From positions 25,069-89,068 of IMG/VR virus record IMGVR_UViG_3300032250_000269: a stretch of DNA of 64,000 nucleotides; one strand, given 5' to 3'. This DNA comes from a virus. Its lineage: Duplodnaviria > Heunggongvirae > Uroviricota > Caudoviricetes. Shown here in pieces: positions 2,920 through 59,996 of this stretch. Each line of letters opens with the position of its first letter. Position 1 is the first letter of the stretch. A program made the translations under genes and the position numbers. Under the pieces are notes generated by a model, which was not told the origin of the DNA, did not search any database, and saw nothing but the letters and a program-made list of their open reading frames with translations.

Positions 2920-4728
2920 ATGACAACAGAAACCTATCTAGGTATTACTATCGATAAGAGTAGAGATGAACTTTTTGATGAGCTTGGAATAAAGCGTCTC
3001 AAAGAATCTTATATGAAAGATGATGAGACTTCACCGCAAGAACGTTTTGCCTTTGTATCAAAGGCATTCTCATCAAATCCAGAACACGCACAACGCCTCT
3101 ATGATTATGCCAGTAAACATTGGTTGTCATATGCTACCCCAATTCTATCATTTGGTCGTACAACTAATGGTATGCCAATTAGTTGCTTTCTTAACTATAT
3201 CGAAGATACTGCTGAAGGTCTAGTTAAGAATTATGAAGAAACCAGCCGCTTGTCTATGATGGGCGGTGGTGTTGGTATTGGATTTGGTATTCGTTCCGCT
3301 GGTAGCAAGTCAACTGGTGTTATGCCTCACCTTAAGACATATGATTCGGGTTCCATGGCATATCGTCAGGGCCGCACTCGTCGTGGTTCATATGCAACAT
3401 ATCTTAACATTAGTCACCCTGATATTCAGATGTATCTTGAGATGCGTAAGCCTACAGGTGATCCCAATATTCGTTGTTTAAATCTTCACCATGCTGTAAA
3501 TATTACAGATGACTTCATGGAAATCATCGAACGTTGTATGATTGATCCAGAGGCAAATGATGATTGGCATCTTCGTGATCCTCATACTGGTGAAATTCGT
3601 GATACTGTTTCTGCAAAGCATTTGTGGCAGTCATTACTTGAAATACGTATGCAAACAGGCGAACCCTATATTCATTATATTGATACTTCAAATCGTCTTA
3701 TGAAGGATTTTCAAAAGAAAAAGGGTCTACGTATCAATCAGAGCAATCTTTGCAGTGAAATTATTCTTCCAACAGATAAAGATCGCACTGCTGTTTGTTG
3801 CTTGTCTTCATTGAATTTAGAGTATTCTGATGAGTGGAGTAAGCCTGATATCATCGATCAATTTATTCGTGACGTAGCTGAAATGCTTGACAATGTTCTT
3901 CAATATTTTATTGATAATGCTGATCGTAAGGTTGCTCGTGCTATCTATTCTGCTAGTCAAGAACGTTCTATTGGTATTGGTGCTCTAGGTTTCCATGCTT
4001 ATCTACAGAAGAAGAATGTTGCATTTGAAAGTGCTGTTGCTAAAGCAATCAACATCAAAATTTTCAAATCAATAAATACTGCTCTAGAAAAGGCCAATCT
4101 TGAATTAGGCGCAGAACGTGGTGAAGCACCTGATGCTGTTGGTACTGGTCGTCGTTTCTCAAATTCAATGGCGATTGCTCCTAATGCATCCTCATCATTG
4201 ATTATGGGCAACACTTCTGCTTCTATTGAACCAATGCCAGCAAATGCATATCGTCAAGATACTTTGTCTGGTGCTTATTTGAATAAAAATAAGTATCTCG
4301 ACAAGATTATTCTTAAGGAAGCAGAAAACCAAAAGAATAATTGGTATGATGACGTTTGGTCAAGCATCATTGCAAATGATGGTTCTGTTCAACATTTGAA
4401 TTGGCTTGACGATCATACAAAATCAGTATATAAAACTGCAATGGAAATTGATCAACGTTGGATCATTGAACTTGCTGCTGATAGACAGCAATTTATTGAC
4501 CAAGCACAATCTCTTAATGTATTTTTTAGACCAACTTCTAACATTAAGTACCTACATGCGGTACACTTCCTTGCTTGGAAGCGTGGTCTTAAGACACTTT
4601 ATTACTGCCGCTCAGAAAAGATTGGCAAGGCAGATAAGGTCTCAAAGAAAATTGAACGTGAAGTCATTAAAGAAATCGATATGCAAAGCCTAGTAGACGG
4701 CGAAACATGTATTATGTGTGAAGGTTAA
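2920..4728 (+). CDS. nrdA: ribonucleotide reductase class Ia large subunit
   Basis: 602 aa; NLCSEI active-site motif, C-terminal Cys pair (CIMCEG); sits in a td-frd-nrd block. Confidence 0.9.
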   Translation: MTTETYLGITIDKSRDELFDELGIKRLKESYMKDDETSPQERFAFVSKAFSSNPEHAQRLYDYASKHWLSYATPILSFGRTTNGMPISCFLNYIEDTAEGLVKNYEETSRLSMMGGGVGIGFGIRSAGSKSTGVMPHLKTYDSGSMAYRQGRTRRGSYATYLNISHPDIQMYLEMRKPTGDPNIRCLNLHHAVNITDDFMEIIERCMIDPEANDDWHLRDPHTGEIRDTVSAKHLWQSLLEIRMQTGEPYIHYIDTSNRLMKDFQKKKGLRINQSNLCSEIILPTDKDRTAVCCLSSLNLEYSDEWSKPDIIDQFIRDVAEMLDNVLQYFIDNADRKVARAIYSASQERSIGIGALGFHAYLQKKNVAFESAVAKAINIKIFKSINTALEKANLELGAERGEAPDAVGTGRRFSNSMAIAPNASSSLIMGNTSASIEPMPANAYRQDTLSGAYLNKNKYLDKIILKEAENQKNNWYDDVWSSIIANDGSVQHLNWLDDHTKSVYKTAMEIDQRWIIELAADRQQFIDQAQSLNVFFRPTSNIKYLHAVHFLAWKRGLKTLYYCRSEKIGKADKVSKKIEREVIKEIDMQSLVDGETCIMCEG

Positions 4729-23247: not shown

Positions 23248-24435
23248 ATGAACTACAAATTCCCTATCATTACGAATATCAGCGACGTACTTCCTGCTAT
23301 TGAAGGTAGGGATGAGTTCGTTGTGGCTGTCAAGGAAGGCTATACTGTCATCAACTACAATGTGATGATGGCTGATACGTTTCCTGCTATTCACAGCGAT
23401 TTCTTGGACGCTGGTTGGCATGAAGATGTAAATGCAGCACTTCGTCGTGAATGTCGTGGTATCATCTTTGATACTGCTACTGGCAACATCATTCGTCGTC
23501 CGTTCCATAAATTTTTTAATGTATCGGAAAGAGAAGAAACCCAAGTAAATGTGATTGATTTGTCTCGTCCTCATGCTATTCTTGATAAGCTTGACGGGAG
23601 CATGATATGCCCATTTATTGTCAACGGACAAATGATTTGGGGTACCAAGATGGGTGCTACTGATGTGTCAAAGCCTGTTGAGGAGTTTGTGAAGAACAAT
23701 CCTGAGTATATTCGCTTTGCTGAAGAAGCGATTGCAAATGAATGGACTCCTATCTTTGAATGGTGCTCACGAAAGCAGCGTATTGTTCTAGATTATTTTG
23801 AAGATCAATTGGTTCTCACTGCTATGCGCCACCTTAACACTGGTTCGTATGCCCTTCATGATAATCTGGTAGAATTGGGTAAGGCATTCGAAATTCCTGT
23901 AGTTCGTGCATTCGAACCGCAGACTGATATGAAGGCATTCATCGAATACGTTCGTGATCTAGAAGACCTTGAAGGTTATGTGGTTCGTTTTGGCGATGGT
24001 CATATGATCAAGCTGAAGTGTGATTGGTATGTCCAAATTCATAAGGCTAAGGAAGCTATTCTACAGGATCGCAACATTGTTGAGTTGATCCTTGACGAAA
24101 AGCTGGACGATATCAAGGCACATCTCCCTGCTGAAGATCGTGATCGTCTGTCTCAGTTTGAAAATGACTTCAATGTTGAAGTGGCTTGTAGGTGTATTGA
24201 GATTGAAAGCATTCTGAAGAACATTGAGGCTGATGGTGTTGATCGCAAGACGTTTGCTCTTGAAATTGCTCCTAAGTTTGATAATTTTCTTCGTGCATCA
24301 GTATTTACCTGTTGGGATGATAAGTCCAAGGTATATAATACTGTACGCAACACAATTCGCAACAATCTTGGTCGTACAGTCAAGTACGAAGCAATTCGTG
24401 ATGTTTGGTTTCCGGGGGTAGTTTTCAATGGTTAA
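23248..24435 (+). CDS. rnlA: RNA ligase (T4 Rnl1-like nucleotidyltransferase)
   Basis: Motif I LDKLDGSM (KxDG) and size (395 aa) similar to T4 RNA ligase 1. Confidence 0.65.
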   Translation: MNYKFPIITNISDVLPAIEGRDEFVVAVKEGYTVINYNVMMADTFPAIHSDFLDAGWHEDVNAALRRECRGIIFDTATGNIIRRPFHKFFNVSEREETQVNVIDLSRPHAILDKLDGSMICPFIVNGQMIWGTKMGATDVSKPVEEFVKNNPEYIRFAEEAIANEWTPIFEWCSRKQRIVLDYFEDQLVLTAMRHLNTGSYALHDNLVELGKAFEIPVVRAFEPQTDMKAFIEYVRDLEDLEGYVVRFGDGHMIKLKCDWYVQIHKAKEAILQDRNIVELILDEKLDDIKAHLPAEDRDRLSQFENDFNVEVACRCIEIESILKNIEADGVDRKTFALEIAPKFDNFLRASVFTCWDDKSKVYNTVRNTIRNNLGRTVKYEAIRDVWFPGVVFNG

Positions 24436-24804: not shown

Positions 24805-25067
24805 GTCTCGAAAAATCAATCTATGAAGCATGGGATAATGCTTTGCAAAATGGATATGAAGAATGGCTGTTGGAAGCTAGCACTATTGACATAGCCGTTG
24901 ATATGATGGATTGTGATGGTGATATTGAGTTGTATTCAAATGGAATGATTGATGTTGTTGTTGGTCATATCGACACTCTTCAATTAAATTATCGAAGGGA
25001 AGTTTATGGTAATTTTCCAGAAGATTATATGAAATTAGGTCTTTATAGGAAAAATAAAAATGGCTAA
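24801..25067 (+). CDS. hypothetical protein
   Basis: 88 aa. Confidence 0.4.
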   Translation: MSLEKSIYEAWDNALQNGYEEWLLEASTIDIAVDMMDCDGDIELYSNGMIDVVVGHIDTLQLNYRREVYGNFPEDYMKLGLYRKNKNG

Positions 25068-25290: not shown

Positions 25291-25768
25291 GTGTACAATT
25301 CTTGTTGGTGTTCCTGCTTCTGGCAAGTCAACATGGCTTAAAAATAATTATGAAAATATGGAGTTTGGTTCGATTGTTGCATCAACCGACAATATTATTG
25401 AAGAATTGGCTGATATGTTTGGATTTACATACAATGATGTTTTTTCAGAAACTATCAGGTTTGCTGATATGGTTATGAACAACAATTTGATTGTAGCAGC
25501 AGAAGATGGTGTAGATATTTACGTTGATCGTACTAATCTTTCTCAAAAGTCTCGTCGTCATTTTATTAAAACTCTCAAGCCATATGGGTATACTTTTGAT
25601 GATGTGGTTTTTGAAACTCCTGAAAAGGATGAATGGAAACGCCGTTTGAATTCTCGTTGTGGAAAGTCTATTCCAAATGATGTTATTGATAGGATGGTGA
25701 ATAGCTACGAAATTCCTTTGGAAAACGAAGGGTTTGAAAAAATCACTTTTATTGAAAATAATGTTTGA
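25283..25768 (+). CDS. P-loop kinase (polynucleotide-kinase-like kinase domain)
   Basis: Walker A GVPASGKST; about 161 aa. Confidence 0.6.
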   Translation: MRKCTILVGVPASGKSTWLKNNYENMEFGSIVASTDNIIEELADMFGFTYNDVFSETIRFADMVMNNNLIVAAEDGVDIYVDRTNLSQKSRRHFIKTLKPYGYTFDDVVFETPEKDEWKRRLNSRCGKSIPNDVIDRMVNSYEIPLENEGFEKITFIENNV

Positions 25769-27051: not shown

Positions 27052-27567
27052 ATGACACATTTTGTTGGACTCGTTATTGCTGATACCGTAGAAGAGATTG
27101 CTTCTCTCCTTGCTCCTTATGATGAAAATATGGATGTAGAATCGTACTTTGAACCTGTAGAGGTTGAGGGTATGGTTGAATATGCCAAGGAAAAGAAAGT
27201 AGAATTTACCAATCCTATCGATCTGGTAGAGTGGTGGGATGGCAAACCCGGTGTTATCAATGAAGCTGGTGAAATCGGCTATATGAGCACCTACAACCCC
27301 GATTCGAAGTGGGATTGGTATGTTGTTGGTGGTCGTTGGGATGATGTTGTCGTAGGCAATCGTTGCCTTGCTGAAGATGTTGAAAGCACCTTTGAGCCTT
27401 TGGGTTACATTCCTTCTGTGATCGTTGATGCTGATGGTTGGCATCAGGCAAAGGAATGGGGTTGGTTTGGTTCATCTAGCCCTGTAGAAGGTAATGAGAA
27501 CATCGTTCGTGAGAAGCTTGCTCAGCACAAGGGTAAGAATGTTTTCATCGTAGATTTCCACATCTAA
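27052..27567 (+). CDS. hypothetical acidic protein
   Basis: 171 aa. Confidence 0.5.
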   Translation: MTHFVGLVIADTVEEIASLLAPYDENMDVESYFEPVEVEGMVEYAKEKKVEFTNPIDLVEWWDGKPGVINEAGEIGYMSTYNPDSKWDWYVVGGRWDDVVVGNRCLAEDVESTFEPLGYIPSVIVDADGWHQAKEWGWFGSSSPVEGNENIVREKLAQHKGKNVFIVDFHI

Positions 27568-34369: not shown

Positions 34370-36181
34370 ATGTTTTCATTTAAACAATTTATTAGAGATT
34401 TAACAGAGTCAAAGTATGAAGATGATGATTATGAAAGTGATTATCTTGATCCTGCTGGTCCCGGTGCACTATATGCTCATTTTGCTAGTCTAGATGAACT
34501 TGATCCAGAAATCAGGGATCATATGCTTAGCAACACTGGTAAGCAAAATATTAAAGAAAGTGCTGAAGCACCACACAAAGTTCTTCAGAAAAAAATGTCT
34601 GAACCAGCCGCTAATCCAGAAGCACAGTCAGATGTTGATAATCAAGTAAAATCAGCACTTAAAAGACACGTTCAAGCATATGGTCGTGAAATTGGTGCTC
34701 CATTAAACCGTTCACAGTCTACAGAAGCGGGAAGAAAAGCCGTAGAAGACCACTATAAGAAATCACCAGAAGAACAAGCCGTAGCATTGCAAGCTGCTGC
34801 ATCAAGAATTGGTCATGTTGCTTATGGTGATAAAAATATGTCACCAAAAGAAGTAGCTGATCGTCTTGCTGGTGGTAATAAGAAAACCGATACTGTTATC
34901 AACAATCCTATCGCAAAGTATAAGGGAAAGCTTACTAGCTCTGTGTCTAGTTATGGTGGTGCTCCCGGTGCATATACTCACTTTGGAGATTCTTCAGGTA
35001 GCTCACAACACCATGTGATAACTTGTCCACATGGTACAACTGGATGTATGGTTGGACAATCTCTTGCTGCTGGGATTGGACACAATTCAAGAATAGGTAG
35101 GGTTGGCCCTTCATGTCTTGCTAAGTCTGGTGGATATGGTTTCAAATCAACTCGTAAAAAAGTTCAAATTAATTCACACATTCGTTCTGGTGGTGATGGT
35201 GGTACTGGTGGTCCAAGCACTGTTGCTGATCATGCTATTCTTACTGCATATAGATTGGCAACAGAAGCAGCCAAAGCAAAGAAGTCAGGTGCAATTCATG
35301 CTGTAAGAACACAAACAACTGATCAACGAGGCGAGGACATTCGTGCTATTGCTAATGAAACTGCTAAGCACGTACCTTCTGTAAGAAGTAATACCGTTTT
35401 GTTTGGCTATTCAAAAAATCCTAAAGAAGTTTTGGATGCTGCAAGAGCAACAAAAAACAGTGGAAATGTTCCAGAACATATTGTGCATAGCCATCCCGGA
35501 CCAGCATATCATCAAGACCGTCAAGGCAATTTAAATCTCAACACAGAGAATATTCGTGCTCTTAAAAACCTTCGTGCTGCACATAAAGCTGCAACTCAAG
35601 AGGGGTTGAACATTAGCGATTATGTTGTTACTGGTGGTAATTCTCTTGATAGCAACGGTGATGCTATTGCAGGAACTGTGCATCGTCAGCCAAAAAGTAA
35701 TGCTAAACCAGAAGAAAAGCAAAGATTTAATAATTTAGATTCTTCTGTTAAAACTGTTCGTTATTGGGATTTACACCACAGCGGTGAGTTGCAACCGGGT
35801 GAACCAGAATCACATCATGATAAAAAAACCGGAACTGGTCATACTACAATTGAACAAGGCGGTAAGCGTCTTAAAGTCAAGTATTATGATCGTAAAGCAA
35901 ATCCCGGTGCCACTGAAACTGGCAGAACTGTGTATAGCCAAAGACATGATGCTCGTTATTCTGATGCAGAAACTAATGCACCACACGCAAATGTCACTGC
36001 TCCTGTAGCTTCTACAAGTAATGAAGCAACACATTCTAGTCAAACTAACTCTATGTTCCATCAAATGCACGTATCATACGATATGCATGGTAACAAGATG
36101 CGCCACAGTCAAGCTGGTATGCTTCACGATGCTCATCCTGATCTTATGCAAAAAGCAGGATACGTATATCCAGATAAGTAA
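34370..36181 (+). CDS. large His/Gly-rich protein with CTS-like N-terminus (candidate packaged/injected protein)
   Basis: MFSFKQFIRDLTE N-terminus; 603 aa. Confidence 0.55.
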   Translation: MFSFKQFIRDLTESKYEDDDYESDYLDPAGPGALYAHFASLDELDPEIRDHMLSNTGKQNIKESAEAPHKVLQKKMSEPAANPEAQSDVDNQVKSALKRHVQAYGREIGAPLNRSQSTEAGRKAVEDHYKKSPEEQAVALQAAASRIGHVAYGDKNMSPKEVADRLAGGNKKTDTVINNPIAKYKGKLTSSVSSYGGAPGAYTHFGDSSGSSQHHVITCPHGTTGCMVGQSLAAGIGHNSRIGRVGPSCLAKSGGYGFKSTRKKVQINSHIRSGGDGGTGGPSTVADHAILTAYRLATEAAKAKKSGAIHAVRTQTTDQRGEDIRAIANETAKHVPSVRSNTVLFGYSKNPKEVLDAARATKNSGNVPEHIVHSHPGPAYHQDRQGNLNLNTENIRALKNLRAAHKAATQEGLNISDYVVTGGNSLDSNGDAIAGTVHRQPKSNAKPEEKQRFNNLDSSVKTVRYWDLHHSGELQPGEPESHHDKKTGTGHTTIEQGGKRLKVKYYDRKANPGATETGRTVYSQRHDARYSDAETNAPHANVTAPVASTSNEATHSSQTNSMFHQMHVSYDMHGNKMRHSQAGMLHDAHPDLMQKAGYVYPDK

Positions 36182-36191
36182 GGACTAATAA

Positions 36192-38372
36192 ATGTTAACT
36201 TTTATCAACTATATGTTAATGATCGAAGCCAAGGTAGATGATTTGGTGACGAAGCACCCTGAACACGCAGAAGCAATTCGTGCATACAATGCTGCTGATC
36301 CTACACCTACCAAGAAGTTTTTGCCTTGGTTAGTAAAGCAACATATTGCTGGTAATGTTACGCCTAATGATGCTAGACTTGGTTCTACACTACAAAATTT
36401 TGATAAAGTAAAACACCAACTTGATAACAAAGATCATAGCGGTTATCATTATAATGATCTTGCTAATAAGGTTGGTGATCGTGTCAAAGCAAAGTTAGAA
36501 GCAGACGCAAAAAAGAATGCTGTAGAGACTATCCATAAAGAACCAAGCGGTATAACAGCACAACATATCAAAACCAAAGAAGCTTCACAAGACCTTTATG
36601 GTGGCGGCGCTGAACGTGGTGGTAAGAAAGGATGTGCTCGTGGTACTTCATGGTGTGTTTCTGCACGTTCTGAAGGAAACTTGTTTGATCGTTATGGTCA
36701 TATGTATACCATACACGATCCAAACGATGATAATGCACCTTATGCCGTACATCCATTCAATCGTGGCGGTATCATAACGTCAAGACATAATGATGGTGAT
36801 AAATCATACAAACTAGTATTAGAACAAAAGCCACATTTAAAAAATGCTGTTAATGCTATTATTGATCATTCCGCAAAACATATTGATGAAATGATGACAG
36901 GCGAAGAAGCTCGTAATGCTATTAATCATCCAAATATAACACCAGAGCATATCGATAAGGCATTAAATCATCCTTATGATAATGGTGTTCGTGAAAAGGC
37001 CGCTGCTCATCCGAATGCAAGTCCTGCAAACATTGAAAAGGCTTTGAAGGCTAATCAGCCAGCCACTGTGCAAGAAGCAGCAATTAGAAACCCAAATGCT
37101 ACTCATGCACAAATTCAAAACGCACTAGAAAATGGAGACAGTGGATTAATCATTTCTGCAATCAGTAATCCAAATCTATCATCAAGTCATATTGATCATG
37201 TTTTGAAAAATGGTTCTAAGCTTCAGAAAATTAAGGCGATGCAACATCCAAATGTAACATCAGAGCATATCACCAAAGCACTAAATGATCCAGAAGCGTC
37301 TGTCCGTTATGCTGCTATAAATCATCCAAATGCAACCGCAGAACACATTACCAAAGCATTAGATGATCCAGATGATAATGTGCGTTATGAAATTATGAGG
37401 TCTGGACACAAAAATATGACACCAGAGCATATCACCAAAGCACTAGATGATACTGATGCTGGTGTGCGTAGGGTTGCTTTGAAAAACTCATTAGTTACAC
37501 CAGAACATATCACCAAAGCACTAGATGATACTGATGCTGGTGTGCGTAGGATTGCTATAGAACATCATAAAATAATACCAGAACATATCACCAAAGCACT
37601 AGATGATACTGATGCTGGTGTGCGTAGGATTGCTATAGAACATCATAAAATAATACCAGATCATATTACCAAAGCATTGAAAAGTGCAGACGCTGATGTT
37701 CGTGAGATTGCTATAAAAAATCGTAATGCAACACCAGAGCATATCACACAAGCATTAGATGATCCTGACACATATGTTCGTGAATCTGCTATAAAAAATC
37801 GTAATGCAACACCAGATCACATCACCAAAGCACTAAATGACAAAAATGTTAATGTACGTGCTGTCGCTGCGTATCGCTCAAATGCAACAGAAGATCATAT
37901 TACTAAAGCATTAAATGATGAACACCCACAAGTTCGTAGGGCTGCTATAGAAAATCGAAATGCAACACCAAAGCATATTAATAAGGCATTAGATGATAAA
38001 AACTTTAATGTTCGTTTTGCTGCTATTGATAATCGAAATGCAACACCAGATCACATCACCAAAGCACTAAATGATAAAGATAATAATGTTCGTCGTGCTG
38101 CTATAAGACATCCAAATGCAAACACCGAGCATATTACCAAAGCATTGGATGATTCTAACAACTATGTTCGTGAAGCTGCTTTAGAACATCCAAATGTAAC
38201 ACCAGATCATATCACCAAAGCATTGGACGATCCTGATGAATATGTTCGTGGAATTGCTATAGAACATCCTAAAGCAACCGCAGAACACATTAAAAAAGCA
38301 TTAAATGATCCAGATTATGATGTTAGATTAACCGCACAGGTCAAAGCTGATGCTATACGTCCAAGACAATAA
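36192..38372 (+). CDS. large protein: novel N-terminal domain plus about 19 HEAT-like (PBS-lyase type) repeats
   Basis: Tandem 31-aa units HITKALDDxDxxVRxxAIxHPNATPE; N-terminus MLTFINYMLMIEAK. Confidence 0.6.
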   Translation: MLTFINYMLMIEAKVDDLVTKHPEHAEAIRAYNAADPTPTKKFLPWLVKQHIAGNVTPNDARLGSTLQNFDKVKHQLDNKDHSGYHYNDLANKVGDRVKAKLEADAKKNAVETIHKEPSGITAQHIKTKEASQDLYGGGAERGGKKGCARGTSWCVSARSEGNLFDRYGHMYTIHDPNDDNAPYAVHPFNRGGIITSRHNDGDKSYKLVLEQKPHLKNAVNAIIDHSAKHIDEMMTGEEARNAINHPNITPEHIDKALNHPYDNGVREKAAAHPNASPANIEKALKANQPATVQEAAIRNPNATHAQIQNALENGDSGLIISAISNPNLSSSHIDHVLKNGSKLQKIKAMQHPNVTSEHITKALNDPEASVRYAAINHPNATAEHITKALDDPDDNVRYEIMRSGHKNMTPEHITKALDDTDAGVRRVALKNSLVTPEHITKALDDTDAGVRRIAIEHHKIIPEHITKALDDTDAGVRRIAIEHHKIIPDHITKALKSADADVREIAIKNRNATPEHITQALDDPDTYVRESAIKNRNATPDHITKALNDKNVNVRAVAAYRSNATEDHITKALNDEHPQVRRAAIENRNATPKHINKALDDKNFNVRFAAIDNRNATPDHITKALNDKDNNVRRAAIRHPNANTEHITKALDDSNNYVREAALEHPNVTPDHITKALDDPDEYVRGIAIEHPKATAEHIKKALNDPDYDVRLTAQVKADAIRPRQ
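37438..37716 (+). repeat. three near-identical tandem 93-bp DNA repeats inside the HEAT-repeat gene
   Basis: Repeated unit ...CCAGAACATATCACCAAAGCACTAGATGATACTGATGCTGGTGTGCGTAGGATTGCTATAGAACATCATAAAATAATA. Confidence 0.8.
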
Positions 38373-38390
38373 ACAAGTAAGGTTTAATAA

Positions 38391-40028
38391 ATGTTAACTT
38401 TTATCAACTATATGTTAATGATCGAAGCCAAGGTAGATGACTTGGCAGCAAAGCACCCTGAACATGCAGAAGCGATTCGTGCTTATCATGCTGCTGATCC
38501 ATCACCAACCAAGAAGTTCCTACCTTGGTTAGTAAAGCAACATATTGCTGGTAATGTAACTCCTAATGATGTAAGACTTGGCTCTACTTTACAACACTTC
38601 GACAAAGTAAAGCATCAACTTGATAACAAAGATCATAGTGGTTATCATTATAATGATCTTGCTAATGCTGTTGGTGATCGTGTCAAAGCTAAACTTGAAG
38701 CTGATGCAAAAAAGAATTCTGTAGAAACCATTCACAAAGAACCAAGCGGTATAACAGCACAACAAATCAAGACCAAAGAAGCATCACAAGACCTTTATGG
38801 AGGTGGAGAAGCTCGTGGTGGTAAGAAAGGTTGTGCACGTGGTACAAACTGGTGCGTTTCTGCTCGTCCCTCTTCTCATGGTGATGGAAATCTTTTTGGA
38901 CATTATGGTCATATGTATACTATACATGATTCAAATGATGAAAATGCACCATATGCTGTGCATCCTTTTTATTATGGTGGTCCGACAATCACTTCTAGAC
39001 ATAATGATGGAGACAAACCACATACACAAGTATTGGCACAGAAACCACACTTAAAAAAAGCTGTGAATGCTATTCTAAATCATTCTGCAAAACATATCGA
39101 TTCATTAATTAATTCAGATGATGATGATGAAGTTTATCATGCCATTAGCCATCCACGTGCGACACCAGAGCATATTGATAAAGCATTAAGTCATACCGAT
39201 TCTGATGTTCGTAATACTGCTGCTAGTCATCCCAATGCATCTCCTGCAAATATTCAAAAGGCTATGAAAGGCAGTGCTTCCATGCAAGAAGAAGCAATCA
39301 AAAATCCAAATGCTACTCATGCTCAAATTCAAAATGCATTGGAGAATGGTCATGGTGGTTTAGTTCGTGCTGCTATTGATAATCCAAATCTATCATCAAG
39401 CCATATTCATCATATTTTGGATCATGGTTCTGAAATACACCGTATCGTAGCTTTAAATCATGCTAATGCAACGGAAGATCATATTACTAAGGCATTAGAT
39501 GATGTTAATACAAGTGTTCGTTTTGCTGCTTTAAACCATCCAAAAGTCACACCTGATCATATTACTAAAGCATTGAGTAATGATGATCCAGAGGTTCGTG
39601 CTGCTGCTATACGTCATCAAAATGCAACACCAGATCATATCACAAAGGCATTGAATGACGATGATCCAGATGTTCGTGCTGCTGCTATACGTCATCAAAA
39701 TGCTACACCTGATCATATTACTAAAGCATTAGATGATCCCATTCGTGTAGTTCGTCTATCTGCTATAAATCATCCAAATGCAACACCAGAGCATATTACT
39801 AAAGCACTAAATGATTCTCACCCATATGTTCGTGCTGCTGCTATAAATCATCCAAATGCAACACCAGATCATATCACTAAAGCACTAAATGATCCTGATT
39901 TTCAAGTTCGCAAAGCCGCTATTAAAAACCCAAATCGTACACCAGAGCATATTGCTAAAGCATTGAATGACGATGATGGAATAGTTCGTGATGCTGCTGA
40001 CGTTGCTCGTATCCAACAAAATCGATGA
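38391..40028 (+). CDS. paralog of the preceding HEAT-repeat protein
   Basis: Near-identical N-terminal domain, divergent repeat number. Confidence 0.6.
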   Translation: MLTFINYMLMIEAKVDDLAAKHPEHAEAIRAYHAADPSPTKKFLPWLVKQHIAGNVTPNDVRLGSTLQHFDKVKHQLDNKDHSGYHYNDLANAVGDRVKAKLEADAKKNSVETIHKEPSGITAQQIKTKEASQDLYGGGEARGGKKGCARGTNWCVSARPSSHGDGNLFGHYGHMYTIHDSNDENAPYAVHPFYYGGPTITSRHNDGDKPHTQVLAQKPHLKKAVNAILNHSAKHIDSLINSDDDDEVYHAISHPRATPEHIDKALSHTDSDVRNTAASHPNASPANIQKAMKGSASMQEEAIKNPNATHAQIQNALENGHGGLVRAAIDNPNLSSSHIHHILDHGSEIHRIVALNHANATEDHITKALDDVNTSVRFAALNHPKVTPDHITKALSNDDPEVRAAAIRHQNATPDHITKALNDDDPDVRAAAIRHQNATPDHITKALDDPIRVVRLSAINHPNATPEHITKALNDSHPYVRAAAINHPNATPDHITKALNDPDFQVRKAAIKNPNRTPEHIAKALNDDDGIVRDAADVARIQQNR

Positions 40029-41945: not shown

Positions 41946-43316
41946 ATGAAAAATATTATTCTAAATTCAGATAGTTACAAGTACAGTCAGTTCAATCAAT
42001 ACCCGGAAGGGACTGAGTACATCTACAGCTACATCGAAAGTCGTGGTGGTAAGTATGATGAGACTGTGTTCTTTGGTCTTCAGGCATTCATCAAGGAATA
42101 CTTGACAAAGCCTATCGATTATTATGATATTGATGAAGCAGCCGCCATTATTGGTGCACATGGAGAACCTTTCAACTATAAAGGTTGGGAATACATCGTT
42201 CGTGAACATGGTGGTTATCTTCCTGTGAAGATCACGGCTGTTCCTGAAGGTCTTGTTATTCCCACTCGTAATGTGCTGGCAACTATTGTTAACACTGATC
42301 CTAAGTGTTACTGGTTGACTAGCTTCCTAGAAACTGCACTGCTTCGTGCTATTTGGTATCCTACCACAGTGGCTACTAACAGTCGTGAAATTAAGAAGGT
42401 TATTCTTGATGCTCTTGAGCGTACCGGTACTCCTGAAGATATTGCTTTTAAGCTTCATGACTTTGGCGCTCGTGGAGTCAGTAGTCTCGAAAGTGCAGGA
42501 ATTGGTGGTGCTGCCCACTTGGTCAACTTCATGGGTACTGACACTGTTGAGGCTTTGCTTTATGCTCGTCGTTATTATGGTGCTGATATGGCCGGGTTCT
42601 CAGTTCCTGCAATGGAGCACTCAACTGTAACTAGCTGGGGTCGTGAACGTGAGGTTGATTCATACCGCAATATGGTAAAGAAGAATGGCAAACCCGGTGG
42701 TATTGTATCTGCTGTTAGTGATAGCTATGATATCTTCAATGCATGTAAGCTTTGGGGTACTGAGCTAAAGCAGGATGTTCTTGATTCAGGTGCAACTCTT
42801 GTAGTTCGTCCTGATTCTGGTAAGCCTGATGAAGTTGTTCTTGGTTGTCTTGTGGTGCTTGATAAGTACTTTGGTCACACTATCAATAACAAGGGATACA
42901 AGGTATTGAATAACGTTCGTGTCCTTCAAGGTGATGGTATTACGATTGATTCAATCAAGGAAATCCTTGCTCTTATTATTGCTAATGGCTATAGTGCAGA
43001 TAATCTTGTATTCGGTCAAGGTGGTGCATTGCTTCAGATTGTCAATCGTGATGATCAGAAGTTTGCTATGAAGTGTTCTGCTGCTTTTGTTAATGGTAAG
43101 TGGGTTGATGTATTCAAAGACCCTATTACTGACAAGGGTAAGCAGAGTAAGAAGGGTAAGCTCAAGTTGGTCAAAGATGTAGATCATTATATTACTATCA
43201 ACAGCCACGATAAAATGTTCGAAATCCTTCACGATGAGATGGAAGTTGTATTCGAAAATGGTGTACTTCTTCGTGACATGAGCTTTGATGAAGTTAGAAA
43301 AAATGCAAATATGTAA
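41946..43316 (+). CDS. nadV: nicotinamide phosphoribosyltransferase (NadV/Nampt)
   Basis: N-terminus NSDSYKYSQ and size typical of Nampt; adjacent to NMNAT. Confidence 0.85.
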   Translation: MKNIILNSDSYKYSQFNQYPEGTEYIYSYIESRGGKYDETVFFGLQAFIKEYLTKPIDYYDIDEAAAIIGAHGEPFNYKGWEYIVREHGGYLPVKITAVPEGLVIPTRNVLATIVNTDPKCYWLTSFLETALLRAIWYPTTVATNSREIKKVILDALERTGTPEDIAFKLHDFGARGVSSLESAGIGGAAHLVNFMGTDTVEALLYARRYYGADMAGFSVPAMEHSTVTSWGREREVDSYRNMVKKNGKPGGIVSAVSDSYDIFNACKLWGTELKQDVLDSGATLVVRPDSGKPDEVVLGCLVVLDKYFGHTINNKGYKVLNNVRVLQGDGITIDSIKEILALIIANGYSADNLVFGQGGALLQIVNRDDQKFAMKCSAAFVNGKWVDVFKDPITDKGKQSKKGKLKLVKDVDHYITINSHDKMFEILHDEMEVVFENGVLLRDMSFDEVRKNANM

Positions 43317-44266: not shown

Positions 44267-44337
44267 AGTTAGAGGTTGACATTCAATAAGCACGGAGGTA
44301 CTGTAATTGAATGTTGGCTTCGACATAATAAATTGTA

Positions 44338-44411
44338 GCGGGAGGGAGGTCTGGTATCTCACTGGTTTCATAAGCCATTAGAAGCGGTTCGAATCCGTCT
44401 CTCCGCAACCA
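44338..44411 (+). tRNA. tRNA-like (CAU loop?), structure uncertain
   Basis: T-arm GCGGTTCGAATCCGT and CCA end, but acceptor pairing is poor. Confidence 0.3.
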
Positions 44412-48418: not shown

Positions 48419-49622
48419 ATGGCGGTGTAGCGTCATTAGGGTAAGGTCGGGTAACTGATCCCAAAGCAAGTTCTCCTACAGAATTGCGCCAGAAATGGTC
48501 CATCTATGCAAGCCTGAACAAACCCGAAAGGGTCCGTCAGTAGAATGGCGGTAGGCAGTAAGTAGTGGTCGAAGGTCCGAAAGGATAGGTTACAGAGCCA
48601 AATCGGTGAGTAATTAAACGGGGTGGTACCTGTGCCAAGGCATACCAACACTATGATTGCTGAATGTTAACAGGTAGTTATTAAGTCTGACCCTGCAAGG
48701 AAAGGCAAGATAGCAGTCACAAAGTTAAAGGGATGACCGGAGACTTGAATGATCGTTGAGTAGTTCGCAAGACGAAAGACAGGAGGTGTGCAGTATTTTG
48801 TATCCCAAAAGGATATGAAGCAGCAGTAGCAGCACATCTTGGTAGGTTAACCTTTGCGGGTAGCTCATTGGTAGAGCAAATGTCTCTTAAACATTAGGTA
48901 GTGGGTTCGATTCCCATGTCGCATATCATAACGATATAAAACGCAAAGACTGCTACGGTACTATGTGAAAGGTGCTTAATACCACACTCGAAAGGGAATG
49001 TGGTTCATGGAGGTTCGCAAGACTGAAGTGATTGTTCGGATTGAAGACGTAAGGGCTTAGCGGCTCCTAACTGCTCTAAAGGTAGGCGGAAGATTGAGGG
49101 ACGAATAGCATAGTGCGACAGGTCACAAGCCAGACCTTAAAAAAGGCAGCACTGGAAGGTACTAGATGACCGTAAAAGGCTCTAGTGGATAACGGGTTAA
49201 CGATCCTCGCAAGGGACTCGGTACGGCTCAAAGACTTCCACATGAAGCAGTAATCTCATGCTTCGTAAATAAGACTGTTTAGATGAGCACATTATACATT
49301 AGAAGGTTTTTTTATCTCCTTACTTTTAATGCATGTGGTTCGGAGACACTTATAGTGTGTTCTTCTAAACAGTTTTGGTGAACACATAGGTTCCTGTCAG
49401 TGTTGTGAGGACAGGGTAATACATCAACACTATCCCTGTGTGTTCATCTAAACTGTTTTAGACTTGTTTCGCTATTACTGCATTTTACGGTTGCAAACGT
49501 CAAAAGTAGTTTAGTGTAAGGCAGCATTCCGCCCGACAATAACCCTCTACGTGACGATAGGGTGGCGGTATGGGTTTCGAAGTCCCATTGCTATATTGCA
49601 GTAATAGCGTAACAAGTTTAAT
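48419..49622 (+). ncRNA. about 1.2 kb ORF-free, highly structured transcribed region (candidate large ornate ncRNA(s); one tRNA-like unit embedded at 48854-48925)
   Basis: Begins right after consensus promoter 48371-48418; no ORF >= 60 aa on + strand; several CGAAAG/GCAAG tetraloop-like hairpins; nested long inverted repeats at 49276-49470. Confidence 0.45.
48854..48925 (+). tRNA. tRNA-Lys-like (CUU loop CTCTTAA), acceptor pairing imperfect
   Basis: D-arm GCTCATTGGTAGAGC, arm AATGT-CTCTTAA-ACATT, T-arm GTGGG-TTCGATT-CCCAT; embedded at the end of a 450-nt non-coding stretch. Confidence 0.4.
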
Positions 49623-49697
49623 GCCAGTATAGCTCAGCGGTAGAGTAGGGGACTCATATTCCCTTGGTCGCTAGTTCGATCCTAGCTACTGGCACCA
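49623..49697 (+). tRNA. tRNA with CAU anticodon (Met or Ile-lysidine)
   Basis: Acceptor GCCAGTA/TACTGGC, loop CTCATAT, T-loop TTCGATC. Confidence 0.65.
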
Positions 49698-50655: not shown

Positions 50656-50730
50656 GCACCATTAGCTCAGTAGTAGAGCATTCGCCTGATAAGCGAAAGG
50701 TGACAGGGGCGGTACCTGTATGGTGCACCA
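50656..50730 (+). tRNA. tRNA-Ile (GAU) with atypical T-loop
   Basis: Acceptor GCACCAT/ATGGTGC, arm TTCGC-CTGATAA-GCGAA; T-loop GGCGGTA lacks TTC. Confidence 0.55.
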
Positions 50731-56960: not shown

Positions 56961-57037
56961 GGACATGTAGCTCAGTAGGTAGAGCAGGGGACTCTTAATC
57001 CCAAGGTCGATGGGTTCAAATCCCTCCATGTCCACCA
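56961..57037 (+). tRNA. tRNA-Lys-like (CUU loop CTCTTAA)
   Basis: Acceptor GGACATG/CATGTCC, T-arm ATGGG-TTCAAAT-CCCTC, CCA. Confidence 0.55.
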
Positions 57038-57170
57038 GTTTGCGGTAAGACTAACACCAACTTATTATTCTATGCATTATCCTGAGTGTTAGAGTGGGTA
57101 TGATTAGGAATAATAAGCCCAAAGTAAGGCGTACCGGAATGCGTCGGAAAAGGTGCCGCAATTTAGTTTT

Positions 57171-57247
57171 GGCCCCATGGTGTAAATAGTAGAGCATACG
57201 AGTCTCTCAAATTCGTGATCCGGGTTCGCATCCCGGTGGGGCCACCA
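57171..57247 (+). tRNA. tRNA-Glu (CUC) probable
   Basis: Acceptor GGCCCCA/TGGGGCC, arm CGAGT-CTCTCAA-ATTCG, T-arm CCGGG-TTCGCAT-CCCGG. Confidence 0.55.
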
Positions 57248-57253
57248 CAAATT

Positions 57254-57329
57254 GGACCATTAGCTCAGTAGGTAGAGCAAGGGGCTTTTAACCTCTGTGT
57301 CGTTGGTTCGAACCCAACATGGTCCACCA
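57254..57329 (+). tRNA. tRNA-Lys (UUU)
   Basis: Acceptor GGACCAT/ATGGTCC, loop CTTTTAA, T-arm GTTGG-TTCGAAC-CCAAC. Confidence 0.6.
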
Positions 57330-57350
57330 TTTTTATAAAGGATATATATT

Positions 57351-57530
57351 ATGAAGTATGTTATTGTTGCTATTCTTGCTATTTCTCTTGCTGCTTGTGG
57401 TAAGATGGATCAGATGCAAGCACATTATACCGGATATTCAAAGATTTGTGTTGACCATGTTCAGTACATTCAGTTTACATCTGGTGCTGCTGTTCAAGTA
57501 GATACAGACGGTAAGCCTGTAGGTTGTTAA
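57351..57530 (+). CDS. small lipoprotein (59 aa)
   Basis: MKYVIVAILAISLAAC signal with lipobox; below track size cut-off. Confidence 0.4.
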   Translation: MKYVIVAILAISLAACGKMDQMQAHYTGYSKICVDHVQYIQFTSGAAVQVDTDGKPVGC

Positions 57531-57552
57531 ATTATAAGGAAACATAAAATAT

Positions 57553-57723
57553 ATGACATGTAGAACTCAGACATTACTTAGCCTTATTGAACGACGAAAT
57601 TCATGTTGGGCAATGGCTAAAGTTTTCTTAGAAAATGAGGATGCTCATGGCATACATGATATGGGTGTAGAAATACAAGCTCTTGATAGAGCAATTAAAG
57701 AAATTGAAAAGATTACATTTTAA
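57553..57723 (+). CDS. hypothetical small protein
   Basis: 56 aa. Confidence 0.35.
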   Translation: MTCRTQTLLSLIERRNSCWAMAKVFLENEDAHGIHDMGVEIQALDRAIKEIEKITF

Positions 57724-57729
57724 GTTAAT

Positions 57730-57805
57730 GCTCCTGTAGCTCAACGGTTAGAGCAGTCGCCTCATAAGCGATTGGTTGTAGGTTCGAATCCTACCGGGAG
57801 CACCA
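57730..57805 (+). tRNA. tRNA with CAU anticodon (candidate tRNA-Ile2/lysidine substrate), directly upstream of tilS
   Basis: Acceptor GCTCCTG/CGGGAGC, arm GTCGC-CTCATAA-GCGAT, T-arm GTAGG-TTCGAAT-CCTAC. Confidence 0.65.
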
Positions 57806-57823
57806 TTTTTAGGATAGAAGATC

Positions 57824-58477
57824 ATGGCTTCTTGGAGAACTATTAGAAAAGATATTGAAAATACTTCTAATAGATATCTGGTTTGTGTGTCTGGTGGTGT
57901 TGATTCTGTTTTTCTTCTTGATTTTCTATTCCGTTGCAATGTGTATATTGAGATTGCTCATTTCAATCATCACATTCGAGAAGATTCTGATAAGGATCAA
58001 GAACTTGTTGTTGGTCTTGCTAGATCAAAAAATTGTGTTATTTGGACAGGCGAATCTCATTCATTGAATTCAGATTCAAATGAACTTGATGCAAGAACAC
58101 AACGATGGGATGTTATTGAATCTATTGCTCGTCATAGAAACTTTACACATATTATCACGGCACATCATGCAGATGATCAGATTGAGAATGTGTTGATTAG
58201 ACTGATGAGAGGCGATCCACATAACAGTCTGGCTATGCAAAAGGCAACTGAAGTAAATGGTTTCATTCGATATAAGCCTTTGCTAAATGTGACTAAGGCT
58301 GAAATTGTTGAACAAGCCGAAAAAAGACAGTTGACATGGAACGAAGATAGTACTAATGTCGATGAAGAATACGATAGAAACTTTGTTAGACATTCATTGC
58401 TACCAATGATGGCAACAAGAACTAACATTTATCAATCTATTCTTACAGGTGTTGAAAAGACACAAAATAGTTTTTAA
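57824..58477 (+). CDS. tilS: tRNA(Ile)-lysidine synthetase-like PP-loop ATPase (TilS N-terminal domain)
   Basis: LVCVSGGVDSVFLL PP-loop (SGGxDS) and AHFNHHIR; lies directly after a CAU-anticodon tRNA. Confidence 0.7.
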   Translation: MASWRTIRKDIENTSNRYLVCVSGGVDSVFLLDFLFRCNVYIEIAHFNHHIREDSDKDQELVVGLARSKNCVIWTGESHSLNSDSNELDARTQRWDVIESIARHRNFTHIITAHHADDQIENVLIRLMRGDPHNSLAMQKATEVNGFIRYKPLLNVTKAEIVEQAEKRQLTWNEDSTNVDEEYDRNFVRHSLLPMMATRTNIYQSILTGVEKTQNSF

Positions 58478-58522
58478 TGTCTGATTAAGTTCAGACTACA
58501 GCCGATACTGAGAGTCATTTAT

Positions 58523-58598
58523 GGACCGGTAACTCAGTAGGTAGAGTGTGGGACTTTTAATCCTAAAGTCGTGAGTTCGAACCTCACCCGGTCCACCA
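58523..58598 (+). tRNA. tRNA-Lys-like (UUU loop CTTTTAA)
   Basis: Acceptor GGACCGG/CCGGTCC, T-arm GTGAG-TTCGAAC-CTCAC. Confidence 0.55.
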
Positions 58599-58609
58599 TT
58601 ATTCGTCAC

Positions 58610-58662
58610 ATGTGGCCAAATATGGCCAATTATAGGTATTAACTCGTCATATTTGGCCACAT
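58610..58662. repeat. 15-bp inverted repeat (hairpin) just 3' of a tRNA
   Basis: ATGTGGCCAAATATG ... CATATTTGGCCACAT, 23-nt loop. Confidence 0.7.
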
Positions 58663-58940
58663 ACGGACATTTAATTATGGTAGAATATTATTGTCACAAT
58701 GATAACAAGATGAAGAATTTCAGCGACACAAAGCTAAAGAGACTTCTTTTACTTGCTAAATACCGTGGCGGTAGTAAAAGTCTATACCATTATTACTACT
58801 ATCTAGTATTTGAAGGTTTGGTTACATGGACATTAGGAACCGCTTTCATTACTAAAGATGGTGAAGAATTGCTTGAAGAATTATTGGAACGTGGGCAGTG
58901 TGGCAATTGCAGCGGTTTGCTAAACCGTACAACCCGTTAA
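58653..58940 (+). CDS. doubtful ORF
   Basis: TTG start inside a 15-bp hairpin; 3' end overlaps tRNA-Ser(GCU). Confidence 0.2.
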   Translation: MATYGHLIMVEYYCHNDNKMKNFSDTKLKRLLLLAKYRGGSKSLYHYYYYLVFEGLVTWTLGTAFITKDGEELLEELLERGQCGNCSGLLNRTTR

Positions 58941-58976
58941 AAGGTTGGCAGGGTTCGACTCCCTGACGTTCCGCCA
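58886..58976 (+). tRNA. tRNA-Ser (GCU), class II
   Basis: Perfect 7-bp acceptor GGAACGT/ACGTTCC, loop TTGCTAA, variable-arm hairpin AACCCGTTAAAAGGTT, T-arm CAGGG-TTCGACT-CCCTG, G73 then CCA. Confidence 0.65.
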
Positions 58977-59066
58977 GATGTTAGTGCCCATGTTTTACCG
59001 AGTGGGAAATTACACCTGAGTTGGAAGAGGGATGCATACCTCGTTAGAACCTTCATCGGTATCCAT

Positions 59067-59144
59067 GGCACTGTAGCCCAACTGGCAGAGGCATCACCCT
59101 CAAAATGTGAAAAGGTGTGAGTTCGAATCTCACCAGTGCTACCA
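59067..59144 (+). tRNA. class I-length tRNA with apparent CAA anticodon (Leu-type), A73
   Basis: Acceptor GGCACTG/CAGTGCT, loop CTCAAAA, T-arm GTGAG-TTCGAAT-CTCAC. Confidence 0.5.
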
Positions 59145-59153
59145 TATAAATAA

Positions 59154-59231
59154 GGGTCGGTGGCGGAGTGGTCCATCGCACAGGACTGCAAATCCTGAAA
59201 GCCGTGGGTTCGAATCCCACCCGGTCCTCCA
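59154..59231 (+). tRNA. tRNA-Cys (GCA)
   Basis: Arm CAGGA-CTGCAAA-TCCTG, T-arm GTGGG-TTCGAAT-CCCAC, acceptor GGGTCGG/CCGGTCC. Confidence 0.6.
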
Positions 59232-59246
59232 TTAAACGGAAAACAG

Positions 59247-59996
59247 ATGACAAAATATAAAACAATTTTCATCAGTGATGTGCATTTGGGTACGAAAGAT
59301 TGTAAGGCTGATTACCTTGACAATTTCCTCAAAAACAATAGCTGTGAAACTTTATATCTTGTTGGTGACATTATTGATGCTTGGAAAATACAGCAAAATA
59401 AAATGAAATGGAAACAATCACATACAGATGTTATCCGTAGAATTTTAAAGCTTGCAAAAAAAGGCACTCAAGTCATATATGTTGCTGGTAATCATGATGA
59501 ATTCCTTCGTCCTATGATACCATATGCAGCTAGTTTTGGTAATGTAAAAATATGTAATCAAATAACTCATACTGGCATAGACGGTAAGAAATATCTTGTT
59601 GTTCATGGTGATCTATTTGATGGTATTACGAGACTAGCACCATGGATCAGTTTTCTTGGTGATCGTGCATATGATATTATACTAAACATCAATAGTAGAT
59701 TTAATTGGATGCGTCATAGACTTGGTTTTGGTTACTGGTCATTAAGCAAATGGTTGAAACATAGAGTTAAAAAAGCCATTGATTTTATTTTTATGTTTGA
59801 AAAAACCATAACAGCCTATGCTAAAAAGCGTGGGTTTGATGGCGTTATCTGTGGACATATCCATCACGCAGAGATAAAGACTATAGATGATATTATCTAC
59901 ATGAATGATGGTGATTGGGTAGAATCGTTAACTTCTCTTGTTGAACATCATGATGGAACATGGGAAATTATAACATGGAAAGAAATAAAAATATAA
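59247..59996 (+). CDS. calcineurin-like metallophosphoesterase (LpxH-like)
   Basis: ISDVHLG...GDIIDAW...GNHDE motifs. Confidence 0.65.
   Translation: MTKYKTIFISDVHLGTKDCKADYLDNFLKNNSCETLYLVGDIIDAWKIQQNKMKWKQSHTDVIRRILKLAKKGTQVIYVAGNHDEFLRPMIPYAASFGNVKICNQITHTGIDGKKYLVVHGDLFDGITRLAPWISFLGDRAYDIILNINSRFNWMRHRLGFGYWSLSKWLKHRVKKAIDFIFMFEKTITAYAKKRGFDGVICGHIHHAEIKTIDDIIYMNDGDWVESLTSLVEHHDGTWEIITWKEIKI

Follow-up and report, generated by a model that had tools for sequence, protein, structure and literature searches.

A tRNA-Ile2-like gene and a catalytic-domain-only TilS encoded side by side among the tRNA genes of a large freshwater phage

Phage T4 encodes a tRNA-Ile with a CAU anticodon, a minor isoleucine tRNA whose C34 has to be modified before it can read AUA codons, and uses the TilS of its host for this modification, whereas the phage described here brings the enzyme too. 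The TilS reaction proceeds in two steps and turns a methionine-accepting reader of AUG into an isoleucine-accepting reader of AUA (PMC12069591, PMC11947777, PMC9976931), at measured rates that vary about 1000-fold across species (PMC11947777, PMC12514573). All described TilS enzymes carry at least one appended tRNA-binding domain (PMC11947777). The discrimination of tRNA-Ile2 from tRNA-Met, two tRNAs with identical anticodons, is attributed to these C-terminal domains, and the solution adopted by the Type II enzymes is regarded as an open problem (PMC11947777). CTD1 of Type II TilS presumably recognises the anticodon stem, the E. coli enzyme reads C4-G69 and C5-G68 as identity pairs, and removal of CTD2 from a Type I enzyme leaves weak activity with relaxed specificity (PMC11947777).

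Homologues of TilS have also been found in viruses. A 2019 report described the TilS of the jumbo phages MIJ3 and PA5oct as new for phages and of unknown function (PMC6892783), and in RsoM2USA, ORF84, of 349 aa, is annotated as TilS (PMC8504454). Furthermore, TilS is encoded in 39 of 41 chlorovirus genomes, for which a boost in AUA decoding has already been proposed (PMC7589089). In these sources, the function of viral TilS is left unknown or putative (PMC6892783, PMC8504454, PMC7589089).

A CAU tRNA and a PP-loop gene in a dense tRNA array

We analysed a 64,000-nucleotide stretch of a viral genome (the window), for which the original prediction had placed a CAU tRNA with the anticodon loop CTCATAA at 57730-57805, immediately followed by a PP-loop gene. 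ARAGORN and the open reading frame confirmed both the coordinates and the features. The tRNA-Ile2-like gene (57730-57805, + strand; ARAGORN, Rfam and identity elements), with an encoded CCA end, is the presumed substrate for lysidinylation at C34, and its score of 74.2 bits was the highest for the Rfam tRNA model in the window. It is separated by an 18-nt spacer, which contains an AGGA Shine-Dalgarno-like motif (57806-57823, +), from the ATG of a 217-aa reading frame that includes the sequence VSGGVDSVFLL and was assigned to tilS by Pfam, NCBIfam, PDB, AlphaFold2 and Foldseek (57824-58477, +). The downstream neighbour of the pair is tRNA-Lys(UUU) (58523-58598, +; ARAGORN), which serves as a synteny marker. 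Since a promoter and terminator scan predicted no + strand promoter-like or terminator-like site in the interval between the tRNA and tilS, the two genes are likely transcribed together. In this large freshwater phage, the locus forms a two-gene module inside the tRNA array. Among deposited phages, neither megablast of 57300-59300 nor blastn of 34370-40028 found a relative at the DNA level, and the phage is therefore without a close sequenced isolate.

Elsewhere in the window, two adjoining large HEAT-repeat proteins of 726 and 545 aa are encoded at 36192-40028 (+), after a 603-aa ORF without a family match, and none of the three matches a PHROG family. Also encoded are a T4-type RNA ligase 1, from the family that acts in tRNA repair and the attachment of tail fibres, as well as NAMPT and the large subunit of RNR, at 23248-24435, 41946-43316 and 2920-4728, respectively.

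The 57730 tRNA holds the entire bacterial Ile identity set, consisting of A73, C4-G69, U12-A23, C29-G41, A37 and A38 (PMC9976931), and shares the further pairs C5-G68 and G27.U43 with E. coli tRNA-Ile2; its anticodon stem is formed by G.U, U-A, C-G, G-C and C-G pairs. In E. coli, the top match was an annotated tRNA-Ile with the CAT anticodon, to which it is about 80% identical over 73 nt. Global alignment gave 78% identity to E. coli tRNA-Ile2, whereas none of the other tRNAs in the phage's genome exceeded 69%. By these identity elements and its nearest E. coli match, the tRNA is assigned to the tRNA-Ile2 type. The initiator-methionine elements that the original prediction had named as evidence against itself were not found in this tRNA: G1 and C72 are paired, and the initiator run G29-G31:C39-C41 of tRNA-fMet is absent, and the Ile set is present. 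Together with the assignment of the neighbouring protein to the TilS N-terminal domain (see below), these features support the predicted arrangement of a tRNA-Ile2 beside its enzyme.

It is very unlikely that the 57730 gene encodes an ordinary elongator tRNA-Met, lying next to tilS as a by-product of the dense tRNA array. ARAGORN indeed gives it the label tRNA-Met, which every CAU tRNA receives from the program, and tilS does sit within an array of 28 tRNAs. However, the tRNA has C4-G69, C29-G41 and A38 and is without U4-A69 and A5-U68, the Met pairs of bacteria, and the global alignment values above place it closer to E. coli tRNA-Ile2 than to the tRNAs of its own genome. In addition, separate Met-like and initiator-like tRNAs are already present, and the adjacency to tilS outlives the reshuffling of the array in relatives.

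All 28 tRNA genes called by ARAGORN lie on the + strand between 43916 and 62200, and three have a CAU anticodon (44338-44407, 49623-49697 and 57730-57805). The tRNA at 49623-49697 (+; Rfam tRNA model, 66.5 bits) has A4-U69, G5-C68, G29-C41 and the loop CUCAUAU, and is without the Ile elements C4-G69, C29-G41 and A38, so that the second CAU tRNA pointed out in the prediction is present but, on these positions, is best read as an elongator tRNA-Met and not as a second tRNA-Ile2. The third CAU gene had been missed in the prediction. Re-reading of the 70-nt ARAGORN call at 44338-44407, which has an odd D-arm, together with its flanks gave a tRNA at 44337-44411 (+) with A1xA72 unpaired, A73, CCA and the loop UUCAUAA. 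This tRNA is atypical and falls below the Rfam tRNA threshold; the relatives carry C1xA72 counterparts of it, and it is therefore considered initiator-like. Neither the 49623 nor the 44337 tRNA had a comparable tRNA-Ile match in E. coli. Furthermore, tRNA-Ile(GAU), which reads AUU and AUC, is encoded at 50656-50730 (+; ARAGORN), and its anticodon stem TTCGC/GCGAA nearly equals the GTCGC/GCGAT of the 57730 tRNA. With this tRNA included, the phage-encoded set appears to cover the whole AUN codon box.

The T-loop of tRNA-Ile(GAU) at 50656-50730 is GGCGGTA, and that of the TilS-adjacent CAU tRNA of a relative (L015, 4212-4288) is GGCAGAT; both Ile-type tRNAs have an odd 'GGC' T-loop without the near-universal T54-T55-C56. 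The tRNA-Lys genes of the array are duplicated, two with UUU and two with CUU, and three of them lie within 1.7 kb of tilS (56961-58598). A full-length GOLLD RNA (RF02032) is encoded within the array at 48783-49262 (+), matched over model positions 1-416 with 172 bits against a gathering threshold of 150, and it encloses tRNA-Lys(CUU) at 48853-48927.

A TilS catalytic domain with nothing appended

The 217-aa protein had been predicted to be a TilS-like PP-loop ATPase, and the profile and fold comparisons agree. It scored 149.9 bits with the PP-loop family PF01171 of Pfam and 157.6 bits with the NCBIfam equivalog TIGR02432 (lysidine_TilS_N), whose cutoff is 93.6, over profile positions 1-189 of 189. 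The PP-loop motif SGGVDS, at residues 23-28, matches SGGxDS, with S23, G25, D27 and S28 unchanged throughout 40 homologues. When the phage and cellular homologues are taken together, the invariant residues are these four and H46, H114, H115, D118, E121, R129, G130, D175, N178, R185, N186 and R189. The closest solved relatives by sequence are three TilS structures, from Aquifex (1wy5), E. coli (1ni5) and Geobacillus (3a2k). An AlphaFold2 model of the protein, built on 40 homologues, reached a pLDDT of 92.3 and a pTM of 0.88, and TilS chains occupied ranks 1-6 of its Foldseek matches, with query TM-scores of 0.83-0.86 (the best, 0.86, to Aquifex 2e21). The target TM-scores of the same matches were only 0.41-0.60; the model therefore spans the N-terminal domain of TilS only. 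The thiolases TtuA and NcsA ranked below the TilS structures.

The prediction had also named a QueC- or ThiI-like enzyme as an identity that would speak against it. The broader reading, that the protein is the remnant of a gene in decay or some other PP-loop enzyme (QueC, TtcA, a TtuA/NcsA thiolase, ThiI or MnmA-like), is largely refuted, and we regard it as extremely improbable. The fold is TtuA-like, and QueC gave weak matches, namely 18 bits in Pfam and PHROG 1550 (E 1.3e-5), the sole PHROG match of the protein. However, the Pfam value is under the QueC cutoff of 22, and the protein obtained 11.3 bits with TIGR00364 against a cutoff of 150, 34 bits with TtcA against 272 and 27 bits with TtuA against 450; with the NCBIfam models of LarE, MnmA and NcsA it likewise stayed far under the cutoffs. 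The QueC identity was rejected as outweighed by NCBIfam, Pfam, PDB and the fold. A thiolase is further opposed by the fold ranking and by the cysteines: no CxxC motif includes any of the three, and the family conserves none of them invariantly, so that an Fe-S site is absent and an Fe-S thiolase is excluded. As for a decaying remnant, the family is conserved over its full length, and dN/dS of tilS was 0.16 between the window and its relative L019 and 0.26 between the relatives L002 and L015, values that indicate that the gene is under purifying selection.

The protein is a complete TilS N-terminal catalytic domain with nothing appended. With NF007942, the equivalog model of full-length TilS, it scored 92.5 bits against a cutoff of 606, because the match is limited to the first approximately 208 positions of the model, and in Foldseek it spans only some 60% of the Aquifex chain, which has 317 aa. 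The appended CTD1 or CTD2 that the described Type I and Type II enzymes possess is absent. We built a CTD profile from the approximately 110-residue C-terminal part of 19 longer homologues, which recovered its positive controls with E-values of approximately 1e-36 to 1e-41. In 1424 six-frame ORF segments from the window and its syntenic relatives, this profile detected no separate CTD gene (best E 0.68), and a split-gene origin of the missing CTD was rejected for the window and the flanks of the relatives. The NCBIfam, Foldseek and CTD-profile results thus substantiate the earlier suggestion of a minimal variant without the TilS C-terminal domains, since the protein consists of the N-terminal domain only. 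Because loss of CTD2 weakens and relaxes a Type I TilS, the domain-less phage enzyme may, by analogy, be slow, unspecific or in need of a partner.

A TilS-derived domain could also have acquired a changed role, as a heterodimer partner or modulator of host TilS, by placing another amine on C34, or by acting on other CAU tRNAs, for instance by modifying the tRNA-Met of the host in the course of its takeover. The protein is without any domain by which known TilS selects tRNA-Ile2 and rejects tRNA-Met (PMC11947777), the residues W4, F30, M128, I161, R199 and N201 are invariant in the short family but no longer so once cellular TilS is included, and the Met-type tRNAs of the phage have the unusual loops CUCAUAU and UUCAUAA, all of which would fit such a role. 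We nevertheless judge a changed role unlikely, as every residue invariant in the N-terminal domains of cellular TilS is retained, nothing points to a partner, and the conserved tight pairing is most simply explained by the Ile2-type tRNA being the substrate.

Conservation of the gene pair and spread of the short TilS forms

The nearest homologues of the phage TilS (45-99% identity, 215-225 aa) are metagenomic, on contigs of up to 360 kb, and their given sources are freshwater-lake samples and similar; contigs of about 190 kb encode proteins with 99% identity. All of the relatives with at least about 59% protein identity have a CAU tRNA directly upstream of tilS and tRNA-Lys(UUU) downstream. 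The spacer between the tRNA and tilS is 18 nt at 84% identity (L006 and L019, the latter on the same contig as L007), 18 nt at 65% (L020, on the same contig as L041), 24 nt at 61% (L002-L005) and 25 nt at 59% (L042), while in L015, also at 59%, a 210-aa minus-strand ORF is inserted between the two genes. The tRNAs farther upstream vary by locus (Lys/Glu/Lys, Val/Ser, SeC-like, Pro/Val or Pro). That the Ile2-like tRNA adjoins tilS at 84, 65, 61 and 59% identity, while other tRNAs in an array of 28 change, indicates an association exceeding chance.

The TilS-adjacent tRNAs of the relatives all have C4-G69, A73 and the loop CUCAUAA, and C29-G41 with G27.U43 is kept in four of the five distinct sequences, the exception being L015 with U29-A41 and U27-A43. 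Compensatory changes occur in their anticodon and T stems, as expected for functional tRNAs. In the arrays of L006/L007/L019, L020/L041, L032 and L042, ARAGORN also assigned genes 70-93 nt long to 'tRNA-SeC (tca)'; these would be UGA-reading suppressor-like tRNAs, and none was called in the window. An exact 15-mer scan of viral contigs for the elongator tRNA-Met of the relatives hit 25 contigs from other samples, none of them the contig of a known relative. At the more distant phage loci with a short TilS, no tRNA was found within 3-5 kb of the gene. Adjacency as a general trait of phage TilS was accordingly rejected; it is confined to the clade with at least about 59% identity.

When 1.84 billion cluster representatives were searched exhaustively with HMMER, 25 of the 27 top matches were proteins of 201-237 aa, as were 32 of the 150 best when lengths of 201-238 aa are counted. 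These short matches span the query from residues 1-4 or so to about 205-215, and TilS forms of about 290-310 aa and about 430-450 aa ranked under them. Several lineages in IMG/VR (L032, L036/L039 and L021, whose contig measures 517 kb) have TilS-like ORFs with 209-231 aa, in addition to forms of 266 aa and 329-343 aa, and the TilS of PA5oct/MIJ3 has 203 aa. We also searched reference genomes, one per species for 185,579 species, and examined the best 80 matches. Their identity was 30-39%, and the 76 complete ORFs among them ranged from 293 to 837 aa, so none of these 76 was a short TilS. The short TilS proteins of about 200-240 aa are a diverse family, and each locus examined for its context lay on a phage or viral contig.

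The nearest cellular homologues are about 295 aa long, share 35-42% identity with the phage protein and lie in tilS-ftsH-murJ-lepA synteny; L014, L047, L049, L051 and L052 are cellular-type loci with a TilS of about 285-300 aa. On several contigs of small-genome bacteria, a CAU tRNA with G1.U72, an A31xG39 mismatch and the loop CUCAUAA lies between 9 nt and 2.4 kb from tilS. Linkage of a CAU tRNA to tilS may therefore extend to the nearest cellular relatives too.

AUA decoding and comparison with known TilS systems

The original prediction had invoked AUA decoding in an AT-rich genome, but the codon counts of the window do not support a particular demand for AUA. In the 64 + strand ORFs of the window, AUA accounts for 122 codons, corresponding to 12% of the Ile codons and 8.2 per 1000, and it is under-used relative to the third-position A content of 24%; tilS itself has no AUA codon. 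The frequency in E. coli is 4.9 per 1000 (PMC12514573). AUA enrichment as the driver is unsupported within the window, and as AUA is scarce and under-used there, the demand side of the argument is weak, even if the 122 codons do have to be decoded.

The supply side could be as follows. Unmodified phage tRNA-Ile2 would act as a Met tRNA, so that its overproduction would be useless unless the TilS capacity keeps pace. The phage would supply the substrate tRNA and TilS together, probably on one transcript, the 217-aa enzyme would edit C34 of the 57730 tRNA to give an Ile-accepting reader of AUA, and the extra AUA decoding would thereby become independent of the amount and specificity of host TilS. 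That the 217-aa enzyme makes lysidine on the 57730 tRNA we hold to be quite probable. Which tRNAs the phage TilS would accept or reject, the benefit to the phage and the independence from the host are matters that we infer from the gene pair. If the enzyme is active, large phages would import a maturation enzyme together with their tRNAs, making a would-be Met tRNA useful for AUA. The pair might also find use in AUA reassignment, as an orthogonal tool of compact size.

A further, more specific proposal is that the catalytic-domain-only TilS is self-sufficient, relies on nothing but the anticodon arm to recognise its substrate and forms a portable pair with the linked tRNA, alongside which it evolved, while the Met-type tRNAs of the phage itself escape by their altered loops (U38 in the 49623 tRNA and U32 in the 44337 tRNA). 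We offer this proposal only tentatively and regard it as rather doubtful. The initiator-like tRNAs of the relatives have the ordinary loop CUCAUAA, unlike the UUCAUAA of the window, and the escape through the U38 and U32 loops therefore remains speculation. If self-sufficiency holds, the C-terminal domains of TilS would be dispensable for discriminating tRNA-Ile2 from tRNA-Met, and the phage pair would be the smallest natural system in which to address that question. A family stripped of all CTDs provides a natural experiment on how little is required for tRNA specificity, and one clade moreover couples tilS to the tRNA presumed to be its substrate.

The phage protein shares its catalytic N-terminal domain with the Type II TilS of Aquifex aeolicus (1wy5/2e21/2e89, 317 aa), its top PDB sequence match (3e-23; query TM-score 0.86), and with the Type II-like enzymes of about 285-300 aa encoded beside ftsH in uncultured small-genome bacteria. 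However, Type II TilS keeps CTD1, whereas the phage protein stops after the linker-helix region, at residue 217. With the Type I enzymes, represented by E. coli MesJ/TilS (1ni5) and the Geobacillus kaustophilus TilS-tRNA complex (3a2k), it has the PP-loop chemistry and the N-domain motifs in common, but it is without their CTD1 and CTD2. The phage tRNA does present the C4-G69 and C5-G68 pairs that the Type I enzyme of E. coli reads; in the absence of CTD1 and CTD2, these acceptor-stem pairs cannot be read in the known way.

The viral TilS homologues of PA5oct/MIJ3, RsoM2USA and the chloroviruses reside, as here, in tRNA-rich genomes. The PA5oct/MIJ3 protein is likewise restricted to the N-terminal domain, with 27.5% identity to the window protein, but its tRNAs lie about 7-10 kb from tilS, whereas they adjoin it in the window phage. 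In MIJ3 (L040, LR588166.1), two CAU tRNAs and one C1xA72 initiator-type tRNA, at 24831-24907, 25312-25388 and 27442-27518, are located upstream of the 203-aa tilS at that distance; the two CAU tRNAs have identical bodies with an Ile2-like anticodon arm and differ only in their acceptor stems. The examined passages of the MIJ3 and RsoM2USA papers mention neither domain loss nor a tRNA-tilS pair. Our literature search found no report that many phage TilS proteins consist of the catalytic domain only, outside the Type I/Type II scheme, no description of a conserved tRNA-Ile2/tilS gene pair and no biochemical test of a virus-encoded TilS. The annotation of TilS in viruses is already known (PMC6892783, PMC8504454, PMC7589089), and what this locus adds to the described systems is the conserved gene pair and the catalytic-domain-only form of the enzyme.
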